In this document: piece after piece, positions 49,518-51,542 of the stretch
Layout of the letters: each line of letters begins with the position of its first letter
Numbering within the stretch: position 1 is the stretch's first letter
DNA from: Escherichia phage WPEC2
Length of the DNA: 64,000 nt
Sequence record: PV691511.1
Reading direction: 5' to 3' (one strand)
Notes under the pieces: model-generated
Seen by the model: the letters and a program-made list of their open reading frames with translations, nothing else
Told to the model about the DNA's origin: nothing
The model's database searches: none
Translations under genes and position numbers: made by a program

Positions 49518-51542
49518 ATGAATTTAACAAGACCTAATAGTGCGATAGCCGATCTAGTAGAAGCTACTTATCGAAAACGTCGCAGCTTTGAGGCAGGTTT
49601 TACATTACGTAATTCCCGCGAAGTTTTGCTGTTAGCAGCAGAAGGGAATTATTACCAATGGAAAGGAACTTTTCCTAAAGTAGTTCCAGCAAACTCTACG
49701 CCAGCAACCACAGGTGGTATTTCTTCCCTAGCGTGGCAAAGTGTTGGAACTGCGGATGATATAGCAATCATCAATGCCAAGTTTACTGCAATGCAGCAAC
49801 AGATTGATGATATTTCTGAAGCAATTCCAGAAGCTGGTAAATCAGCTTATCAGATTGCAGTAGATAACGGTTTTGTTGGAACGGAAGCACAATGGCTGGC
49901 TTCTTTGAAAGGGGACACTGGTGCTCAACTAAACATTAAAGGATCATTAGCAAGCACGAATGAGCTACCATCTACAGGTAATGTAGCAGGTGATGGTTAC
50001 ATTGTAGGAGATGTAATATATGCTTGGGACGGTTCTGTTTGGAAACTTATTTCTTCTCTTGGACCAGAAGGGAAATCAGCTTATGAAGTATGGTTGGCGG
50101 ATGGCAATACAGGATCTGTTTATGACTTCCTTGCTTCTATAAAAGGAGATAAAGGTGACGTTGGTCCTACAGGTCCACAGGGAGCACCTGGTGTTAATGC
50201 CAACGGTTTTGATTATCGTGGGGATTTGCCTTCCACAAGTAACTTACCACAACCTAACTCTGAAAACGTAAGTCAAGCTTATTCTATTAATGGTAATCTT
50301 TATGTTTCTAATGGGACGGCTTGGGTCAACATGGGTAATATTGTTGGTCCTCAAGGCCCACAAGGTGAGGCAGGTAAAGATGGTCTAGACGGAACAGATG
50401 GTGACGAAGGGAAATCGGCTTACCAGAGTTGGTTAGACATTGGTAATGAAGGGACAGAAGTAGATTTTGTTGCTGCCTTAAAAGGAGAGAAGGGGGACAA
50501 AGGAGAGAAGGGAGATCCTGGCCCACAAGGTGAACAGGGTGTTCAAGGTATCCAAGGTCCGGTCGGTGCAGGTCTTTCTGTAAATGGTGAATTGTCAGAT
50601 GTTTCAGAACTACCTTCTGTAGCAGAGGTTGGTGATGCCTACATCGTAAAAAATGAACTTTACGTGTGGATCGACGACAATCAAACGTGGCTAAATGTAG
50701 GTAGTTTGGGTGGTAGATCTATTACAGCTAAAGGTCATGTTGCAAATGGAGAAGCTCTCCCTGTTTACAATAATTATGGAGATGCATATTTAACCGAAGA
50801 TACCAGTAATCTTTATATTTACACTTACGATGAAGATACTAATTCTGCATCTTTTGTAGATATGGGGAGTATCAAAGGTGATAAAGGTGAGAAGGGAGAT
50901 AAAGGGGATAAGGGCGATCCTGGAACAAACGGAACCAACGGTACTAATGGGACCAATGGTAAAGACGGCGCACAATGGTTTGTAGCAACAACTAATCCAA
51001 TTGCAGGGGATGGCGTTATCAATGATTACGCTTTCAATACTACCACTGGAGCAGTGTTTAAGAAAACAGATTCTTCTACGTGGACACTTATAGGAACTCT
51101 TCCTAGTATACCAGAAGCCCCTCAAGACGGTTTGACGTATGGTCGTTCTGATGGAAACTGGATCGAAATATCAGGATCAGATCCTACGGAAGCTATAACA
51201 CCAACTAGAGTTACAGCAGGTTTCATGGAACTTGAAACAACTACTGCCAACTCTGGAACATCTTGGACTCCTTCTGGAACTTCCAATATGTATGTTGTTA
51301 CAGTAACTGACGCTCTAACAGTTGGAGCATGGCCTGGTGTCACTGGCTCTACAAAACCTAAAGCATTTTCCGCAATGATTTATTTGATTCAAGATACAAC
51401 GGGACACACGGTTACACTAGATGCGTCTTATGGAGCACTGAATGATACAGAAATAGCAACTACTGCTAACGCAGTAACAATTTTGCAATTAACGTATCCT
51501 GGTGTGGGTGATATCGTGGACATGGTTGTTGTAACACGATAG
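49518..51542 (+). CDS. tail fiber protein with collagen-like Gly-X-Y repeats
   Basis: GPTGPQGAPG, GPQGPQGEAGKDGLDGTDGDEG, GDKGEKGDKGDKGDPGTNGTNGTNGTNGKDG; three copies of a KSAY(Q/E)...WL(A/D)...KG(D/E) repeat. Confidence 0.65.
   Translation: MNLTRPNSAIADLVEATYRKRRSFEAGFTLRNSREVLLLAAEGNYYQWKGTFPKVVPANSTPATTGGISSLAWQSVGTADDIAIINAKFTAMQQQIDDISEAIPEAGKSAYQIAVDNGFVGTEAQWLASLKGDTGAQLNIKGSLASTNELPSTGNVAGDGYIVGDVIYAWDGSVWKLISSLGPEGKSAYEVWLADGNTGSVYDFLASIKGDKGDVGPTGPQGAPGVNANGFDYRGDLPSTSNLPQPNSENVSQAYSINGNLYVSNGTAWVNMGNIVGPQGPQGEAGKDGLDGTDGDEGKSAYQSWLDIGNEGTEVDFVAALKGEKGDKGEKGDPGPQGEQGVQGIQGPVGAGLSVNGELSDVSELPSVAEVGDAYIVKNELYVWIDDNQTWLNVGSLGGRSITAKGHVANGEALPVYNNYGDAYLTEDTSNLYIYTYDEDTNSASFVDMGSIKGDKGEKGDKGDKGDPGTNGTNGTNGTNGKDGAQWFVATTNPIAGDGVINDYAFNTTTGAVFKKTDSSTWTLIGTLPSIPEAPQDGLTYGRSDGNWIEISGSDPTEAITPTRVTAGFMELETTTANSGTSWTPSGTSNMYVVTVTDALTVGAWPGVTGSTKPKAFSAMIYLIQDTTGHTVTLDASYGALNDTEIATTANAVTILQLTYPGVGDIVDMVVVTR

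Follow-up and report, generated by a model that had tools for sequence, protein, structure and literature searches.

Whole-triplet length variation of a collagen-like tract in a putative tail fiber of Escherichia phage WPEC2 and its relatives

Collagen-like Gly-X-Y repeats that differ in number between close relatives are well known from bacterial surface proteins: Bacillus anthracis BclA, streptococcal Scl1 and Scl2, and Legionella Lcl all display in-frame Gly-X-Y copy-number polymorphism among strains, and in BclA the number of repeats sets the length of the filament. The phage proteins EPclA-D, encoded by prophages of enterohemorrhagic Escherichia coli (EHEC), were found by experiment to form trimeric rods that contain a triple helix with 2.9 Å per residue and a C-terminal trimerization domain (Ghosh et al. 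2012, PMC3368898), and the adhesion proteins of Streptococcus thermophilus phages contain collagen-like linkers "of various lengths" (PMC13207995, PMC5601072). A cryo-electron microscopy study of phage phi92 published in 2026 placed gp151 among four putative fiber proteins and called it functionally uncharacterized (PMC13450770). Here we describe a gene of this type in a 64,000-nucleotide (nt) stretch of Escherichia phage WPEC2 (sequence record PV691511.1), referred to below as the window, which comes from a Phapecoctavirus. The gene is an open reading frame (ORF) of 674 amino acids (aa) at 49518-51542 on the plus strand, as are all features given below unless stated otherwise, and by sequence comparison it is the orthologue of phAPEC8 gp179 (phAPEC8_00179) and phi92 gp151. 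The last of its four collagen-like tracts, T4 (a label unrelated to phage T4), is the strongest indel hotspot of the fiber gene. A literature search found no description of this polymorphism in the gp151-type fiber of the Stephanstirmvirinae.

A first-pass annotation made from the DNA letters had placed a triplet-repeat tract encoding GDKGEKGDKGDKGDPGTNGTNGTNGTNGKDG at 50870-50975, inside the ORF whose coordinates it gave correctly. The peptide is encoded exactly at 50877-50969 (aa 454-484), within the interval first proposed, and consists of ten triplets and a closing Gly: GDK, GEK, GDK, GDK and GDP, then four GTN units, GKD and the final Gly. When the entire window was read in six frames, only four Gly-X-Y runs of at least five triplets were found, all of them in the fiber gene. 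These are T1 (50145-50198, aa 210-227, GDKGDVGPTGPQGAPGVN), which is made of six different triplets and is without internally repeated units, T2 (50346-50411, aa 277-298, GPQGPQGEAGKDGLDGTDGDEG, 7 triplets), T3 (50484-50573, aa 323-352, 10 triplets) and T4 itself. Shuffling the residues of the protein 20,000 times gave no run longer than 7 triplets, as compared to the 10-11 observed, and the Pfam Collagen family (PF01391) matches at 53.9 bits (cut-off 27.2; E 1.5e-14), with its best stretch at aa 454-485. Two minus-strand ORFs that run across T4 (50825-51022 and 50790-51125) were rejected as genes; they arise as the mirror image of the repeat that codes for Gly-X-Y.

The near-tandem 9-bp units described in the first-pass annotation hold up as to their period and fail as a near-perfect repeat. 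Tandem Repeats Finder reports a period of 9 or 18 in the 93-nt tract with 76-85% matches (scores 31-57), the longest exact direct repeat within it is 8 nt (GATAAAGG, 18 nt apart), and the four GTN units differ in their codons; by chance, identical neighbors among four units would be expected at a rate of just a few per cent. The fourth GTN (unit 8) arose by a G-to-A substitution (GAT to AAT) and not by expansion, most relatives having GTD at this place. A long near-perfect tandem DNA repeat, of the sort seen in contingency loci, is thus absent from T4.

To describe length variation we used 81 distinct full-length orthologues, taken from GenBank loci and a collection of 5.8 billion proteins and including members of 90% clusters. 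Triplet counts leave out the closing partial triplet, which is why T1, with 18 residues or 6 triplets in full, is counted as 5. In this set T4 has 2, 3, 4, 5, 6, 7, 8, 9, 10 or 12 triplets, with an 11-triplet state added by the GenBank record of PsgM04F; T2 ranges from 4 to 10 triplets and T3 from 8 to 10, and T1 has 5 in all 81. Indels in the tracts always come in multiples of three residues, and Gly fills 2559 of 2559 register positions. Fitch parsimony on a neighbor-joining tree built from 489 ungapped non-collagen columns requires a minimum of 20 length changes in T4, 6 in T2, 2 in T3 and none in T1, with 19 changes for all 14 non-collagen indel sites taken together; T4 makes up 4.6% of the protein yet collects about 43% of the inferred indel events. 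T2 is a hotspot as well, and varies in its G-x-D or G-D-K units independently of T4. Phi92, for example, has 5 triplets in both T4 and T2, versus 10 and 7 in the window. Compensation between the lengths of T2 and T4 was considered and rejected, their sums running from 10 to 17 across clades with no constant total among few independent lineages.

The relatives of this fiber are therefore polymorphic for whole, in-frame triplets, over a range of 2-12 and by at least 20 changes. This bears out, on an evolutionary time scale, the first-pass expectation that the repeats expand and contract, with recent changes in both the GTN-type and the G(D/E)K sub-arrays; a repeat number identical in all relatives, named there as the contrary outcome, is not what the orthologues show. 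Because the tract spans at most 111 nt, which is shorter than typical reads, and because the states recur in independent records (the 6-triplet state in 8 GenBank records, the 12-triplet state in 5 phages and 8 metagenome proteins), assembly artefacts are an unlikely source of the length variants. One metagenomic allele, P0142, is present on 19 contigs. A scan of IMG/VR proteins returned a single true orthologue (L001), the remainder being modular relatives at 25-54% identity that are of no use for copy number, and a metagenome scan gave no close orthologue among the matches listed, which mostly reflect a generic collagen peptide pattern.

Length change in T4 appears to be a slow evolutionary process rather than a high-frequency switch. 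In a GenBank census, 69 Phapecoctavirus records cover the tract region of 301 nt. It has this length in all of the best 60, 57 of them non-WPEC records, and every 301-nt allele in which the tract was read has 10 triplets. The exceptions in the census are ASO2A with 9 triplets, iGC_PHA_EC001 with 8, five phiWec phages with 12, PsgM04F with 11, and a deletion in EP57. Phages WPEC1, WPEC4 and WPEC6 are identical to each other in the fiber gene. The 56 Justusliebigvirus records show two states only, 5 triplets in 48 and 6 triplets in 8. Individual units carry signatures that are conserved across about 60 genomes which are themselves about 11% divergent in the tract region, and turnover must hence be slow. 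WPEC1, WPEC4 and WPEC6 do not differ in copy number and the 57 listed records share one tract-region length, yet metagenomic alleles with 99.5-99.7% identical flanks can differ by two units.

The EP57 allele is a separate case. Escherichia phage vB_EcoM_EP57 (L086 / P0006) has a 486-nt in-frame deletion equivalent to window positions 50472-50957 (aa 319-480), which takes out T3 together with two beta-modules and all but one of the ten T4 triplets and leaves a 512-aa protein. The deletion junction has no obvious microhomology, and the EP57 record is about 20 kb shorter than those of its relatives.

Synonymous differences give every unit of the Phapecoctavirus array a signature by which missing units can be identified individually. 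In ASO2A (9 triplets) exactly unit 7 (GGAACCAAC) is gone, with the direct repeat AACGG at its bounds; in iGC_PHA_EC001 (8 triplets) units 3-4 are gone, a loss of 18 nt with AAGGG at its bounds; the PD06 clade has an additional GGTGAGAAA unit (GEK) beside GGTGAAAAA, which phi92 is without; and the metagenomic alleles P0144 and P0146 are one GGTACAAAT unit apart, with GGTAC at the bounds. All four of these recent changes, each of 9 or 18 nt, fall within (G-D/E-K)n or (G-T-N/D)n sub-arrays, and 5-nt direct repeats flank three of them. The neighboring units in ASO2A, iGC_PHA_EC001 and PD06 retain their lineage-specific codon signatures, and the genes compared, which are 96-99.7% identical, contain no gaps elsewhere. 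Slipped-strand mispairing, or unequal exchange between short homologies that recur periodically, is expected to leave an indel pattern of this kind, and the invariance of T1, which has no repeated units, fits a homology-dependent mechanism. Replication slippage, as distinct from unequal or allelic recombination, is a putative route.

Comparison with relatives places the tract in a recognizable kind of protein. The fiber gene matches the "tail fiber protein" of Escherichia phages WPEC1, WPEC4 and WPEC6 at 100% identity; about 60 further Phapecoctavirus records, phAPEC8_00179 among them, stand at 89-94%, and phi92 gp151 and other Justusliebigvirus genes at about 64% in nucleotides. PHROG 15437 (tail fiber) matches the whole length of the protein, and some phages of the BASEL collection label the orthologue "lateral tail fiber protein with type I collagen domain". 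The Pfam Collagen match, PHROG 15437 and gene context all agree with the first-pass description as a collagen-like tail fiber, a label that derives from the adaptor domain, the neighboring genes and annotation rather than from localization in the virion.

The protein opens with a predicted Tail_spike_N adaptor (49551-49748, aa 12-77; Pfam PF18668, E 1.2e-19, 70.5 bits against a cut-off of 25) of the CBA120 TSP / G7C gp66 type, whose sequence matches in the PDB fall in the N-terminal adaptor regions of tailspikes, CBA120 TSP3/TSP4 among them. A long helix predicted at 49752-49823 (aa 79-102) from AlphaFold2 (AF2) secondary structure in a low-confidence monomer is probably a coiled-coil neck, and the annotation of phi92 gp151 carries the note "central domain predicted as coiled-coil". 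The AF2 monomer of the full protein has a mean predicted local distance difference test (pLDDT) score of 54.5 and was used for the order of secondary-structure elements only. Next come three repeats of a KSAY helix-turn-helix, a collagen tract and a small beta-module, followed by a fourth beta-module. The three KSAY...KG copies, already noticed in the first reading, lie at 49836-49913 (aa 107-132, GKSAYQIAVDNGFVGTEAQWLASLKG), 50070-50147 (aa 185-210) and 50409-50486 (aa 298-323), as placed by repeat comparison and AF2. Neither isolated KSAY modules nor beta-modules matched a Pfam family, and the PfN and PfC domains gave no Pfam match in the fiber protein. In Escherichia phage SKA64 (L084, ~544-620) the first KSAY module (window ~49836-49913) contains a 76-nt tandem duplication that shifts the frame; SKA64 annotates a truncated coding sequence (CDS) only, and the frameshift is either real or an assembly error.

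Distal to T4 lie a small beta-module (50970-51101, aa 485-528), a foldon-like motif (IPEAPQDGLTYGRSDGNWIEIS, 51108-51173, aa 531-552) and a C-terminal all-beta domain (51192-51530, aa 559-671). The motif, a predicted beta-hairpin, is identical to the foldon of phage T4 fibritin at 13 of 22 residues (59% identity over 22 aa, E 6e-10 in a pairwise comparison), and the foldon chimeras 1v1h and 8wtj were matched by phmmer through it; Pfam Fibritin_C scores 14.3 bits on it, below the cut-off of 21. It is internal in the protein, C-terminal of the collagen tract and followed by another domain of 120 aa. The orthologue P0014 is without the 46-aa module ahead of the motif, and there the collagen almost abuts it. 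The C-terminal domain, of the Phage_phiTE_241_C type, is probably the distal or binding end; it matches the C-terminus of the "putative tail fiber protein" of phiTE (9cuy_g, E 7e-8), and PF26209 (Phage_phiTE_241_C) was detected on orthologues.

Taken as a whole, these observations are best explained, and we think probably explained, by a slowly evolving collagen spacer in a homotrimeric virion fiber. The adaptor would dock the fiber to the baseplate or to the tailspike network, and after it would come a helical neck, the three [KSAY, collagen, beta] repeats, a beta-module, T4, another beta-module, the foldon-like hairpin and the phiTE-type domain. Such a fiber would resemble beads on a string, with short collagen-like helices alternating with small globular modules. 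T4 would form its (Gly-X-Y)10 collagen-like segment, a thin spacer of about 9 nm that sets the distance of the distal head from the rest of the fiber. The (G-D/E-K)n and (G-T-N/D)n halves of the tract would gain and lose whole 9-nt units, likely through their direct repeats of 5-8 nt, found at 9-nt intervals, by slipped-strand mispairing or unequal recombination, and selection would purge changes that break the frame or the Gly periodicity. The outcome would be the length polymorphism of 2-12 triplets, or ~1.7-10.3 nm, across the Stephanstirmvirinae.

Of the 31 residues of T4, 11 are charged and one is Pro, and KGD/KGE pairs occur four times. Host-guest peptide work has established that KGD/KGE charge pairs stabilize triple helices, and in engineered proteins a foldon placed C-terminal of collagen nucleates the triple helix. 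The four pairs would favor a triple helix in T4, and it is plausible that the foldon-like hairpin nucleates the collagen helix, given the engineered foldon-collagens and the C-terminal trimerization domain of the EHEC prophage proteins. At 0.286-0.29 nm per residue, the calculated length of T4 is 8.9 nm, with 0.86 nm per triplet and 1.7-10.3 nm across the family. From collagen geometry, a change in triplet number should translate into a change in fiber length, and would alter how far away or how flexibly the distal domain sits; an effect on reach or host range could follow.

Several points weigh against this interpretation. T4 has a single Pro among its 31 residues and contains G-T-N four times, and the stability of a T4 helix is uncertain. 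The AF2 monomer models give T4 a pLDDT below 50, which is expected for a monomer and hence uninformative, and the triple helix is a prediction from sequence. The predicted gp151 model did not fit the phi92 fiber densities, fiber II included (PMC13450770), and the closest structural relative appears to be a capsid spike (PMC13450770). The parsimony count could be inflated, its neighbor-joining tree being that of a visibly mosaic gene, and recombination may have brought in some of the differences in copy number. Lastly, P0142 and P0146, whose flanks are gapless and 99.7% (upstream) and 99.5% (downstream) identical, differ in T4 by 18 nt, and this difference is complex: two events or an allelic exchange are needed to account for it, in place of a single clean unit deletion.

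The last points lead to the alternative that survives best, namely that copy number is imported by homologous recombination between diverged fiber alleles, the collagen tracts serving mainly as crossover linkers. Phapecoctavirus genomes carry two allele types of the segment comprising T3 and the following beta-module (50478-50720, aa ~321-400), the left edge of which coincides with the start of T3. Within this module the window differs from phAPEC8, 536P1, DIJ07P2 and ZCKP1 at 19-34 of 60 nt and from nieznany, anhysbys and ukendt at 1-6 of 60 nt, and the flanks of the block differ at 0-12 of 60 nt. Such module swapping, together with the complex replacement between P0142 and P0146, is what allelic exchange would produce, and collagen-like repeats do separate domains in the antireceptors of Streptococcus thermophilus phages (PMC5601072). 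However, the changes in ASO2A, iGC_PHA_EC001 and the P0144/P0146 pair are clean whole-unit events beside 5-nt direct repeats, and that in PD06 is one added GEK unit; the codon signatures of the units next to them (ASO2A, iGC_PHA_EC001, PD06) are intact; the remainder of these 96-99.7% identical genes aligns without a gap; and recombination leaves the invariance of the non-repetitive T1 unexplained. We therefore regard this account as unlikely, with the qualification that allelic recombination is clearly active in this gene, that the two mechanisms are not exclusive and that recombination may ferry some length states between lineages.

A further proposal concerns function. The distal tract could act as a selectable "ruler", its triplet number (2-12) being tuned in each lineage to the thickness of capsule, colanic acid or O-antigen, so that the gain and loss of units would be a route of host-range adaptation for multivalent Stephanstirmvirinae, possibly with length heterogeneity in natural populations. 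We consider it rather improbable that the length differences carry this much adaptive meaning.

The repeat tract might also be read as a hypermutable contingency locus, in which frequent slippage yields lysates of mixed fiber lengths as a bet-hedging response to variable host surface layers. T4 is an indel hotspot, near-identical metagenomic alleles differ in T4 only, and every variant would be functional, all changes being in frame. Against this, the longest exact DNA repeat has just 8 nt and the units are just 76-85% alike; the 57 listed non-WPEC Phapecoctavirus records have one tract-region length, with synonymous signatures conserved unit by unit in those read; and the three WPEC isolates are identical, as are 48 of the 56 Justusliebigvirus records in their triplet state. 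A hypermutable locus is unlikely on these grounds, and bet-hedging by mixed fiber lengths seems to us very improbable.

Equally remote is the idea that T4 is a flexible low-complexity hinge with no collagen helix, its length near-neutral and its Gly periodicity an ancestral relic: the very low imino-acid content (1 Pro in 31 residues), the lack of AF2 structure for T4 and the tolerated range of 2-12 triplets, along with the natural EP57 allele that has lost nine of ten triplets plus two modules, would suit it, but a neutral hinge would hardly hold Gly at 2559 of 2559 positions or confine indels to whole triplets in lineages ~60% identical, the KGD/KGE pattern and the putative foldon-like nucleator downstream suit a short non-hydroxylated triple helix, and short phage collagen motifs do fold, as in SPP1 gp12 (PMC6316719). 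We thus retain the slowly evolving collagen spacer as the preferred interpretation.

The surroundings of the gene are those of a tail locus. In WPEC1 the gene order is baseplate wedge, tail fiber, tail fiber assembly, colanidase tailspike and then the fiber gene, with an RCC1-like/Big_2 tail protein as its 3' neighbor, which places the gene in the baseplate/tail-fiber cluster. Terminator-like hairpins lie on both sides, one at 49461-49483 (no strand assigned) between the colanidase tailspike gene and the fiber gene, annotated as a rho-independent terminator in ASO2A, and one at 51545-51564 directly past the fiber stop codon, annotated as a terminator in ASO2A and phAPEC8. This arrangement suggests that the fiber gene may be transcriptionally insulated from its neighbors. 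Upstream, 46401-49454 encodes an orthologue of a colanic-acid-degrading tailspike in which Tail_spike_N is internal (aa 302-361); in tailspike orthologues a Phage_phiTE_241_N domain precedes Tail_spike_N. One phiTE protein shares its N-terminal domain with the tailspike gene and its C-terminal domain with the adjacent fiber gene. Downstream, 51584-54256 encodes the 890-aa RCC1-like/Big_2 tail protein, which is present as two CDSs in iGC_PHA_EC001 (L082 2397-3483) and whose orthologues in other clades have 589 aa or are otherwise of different length.

The records that carry the gene are not all labeled as coliphages. Relative to the coliphage genera Phapecoctavirus and Justusliebigvirus, fiber genes that are 88-100% identical occur in records labeled as Campylobacter phages (B15, C3, A150 and others), Acinetobacter phage ABPW7, Pseudomonas phage PsgM04F, Serratia phage KKP_3264 and Salmonella phage UAB_1. 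These odd host labels reflect either a truly broad host range or questionable labels or isolations.

Phages of the genera Phapecoctavirus and Justusliebigvirus are in use and under study as broad-host-range therapeutic phages, and their multi-fiber adsorption apparatus has been only partly assigned. The variable part of this fiber is almost wholly the length of two collagen spacers, and the more variable of the two adjoins the distal foldon-like motif and head and varies in steps calculated at 0.86 nm. A range of 2-12 triplets could thus offer a simple, engineerable parameter for fiber reach in adsorption, and the protein may provide a natural example of a foldon-type motif placed C-terminal of a collagen helix.

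These findings do not point to a new kind of mechanism; bacterial surface proteins, and the adhesion devices of other phages, already provide examples of collagen-like regions with a variable number of repeats. BclA, Scl1/Scl2 and Lcl share with the WPEC2 fiber the whole-triplet copy-number polymorphism of Gly-X-Y among related strains. The Tal proteins and antireceptors of Streptococcus thermophilus phages are alike in that collagen-like linkers part the domains of an adhesion device; they are unlike in belonging to siphophages of a Gram-positive host and in having carbohydrate-binding modules as flanking domains, and the comparison concerns Gly-X-Y. EPclA-D are phage side-fiber proteins in which a triple-helical collagen part is joined to a coiled coil and to a trimerization domain at the C-terminus; in the window fiber, counterparts of these features are predicted from sequence. 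The collagen of EPclA-D forms one long domain (~111 residues), accompanied by PfN, PCoil and PfC domains; that of the window fiber is distributed over four short tracts interspersed with KSAY and beta-modules, and its other parts include a Tail_spike_N adaptor and the foldon-like motif.

The foldon of phage T4 fibritin and the engineered (GPP)n-foldon collagens offer the nearest parallel to the distal part of the fiber, with a 22-residue motif that is 59% identical and also lies C-terminal of a collagen tract; unlike the phage T4 foldon, the window motif falls under the Fibritin_C cut-off, is separated from tract T4 by a beta-module of 44 aa and has a 120-aa domain after it. The capsid spike of Pseudomonas phage Pa223 (PDB 9ny6), to which the 2026 phi92 study also reports a similarity of gp151 (PMC13450770), is more distant, at 11-14% identity with TM-scores of 0.25-0.35, and is a capsid rather than a tail protein. 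The closest counterparts are phi92 gp151 and phAPEC8 gp179, which have in common with the window gene the upstream colanidase tailspike, the domain order and the four collagen tracts, with phi92 gp151 differing in the number of triplets in T4 and T2, 5 and 5 against 10 and 7.

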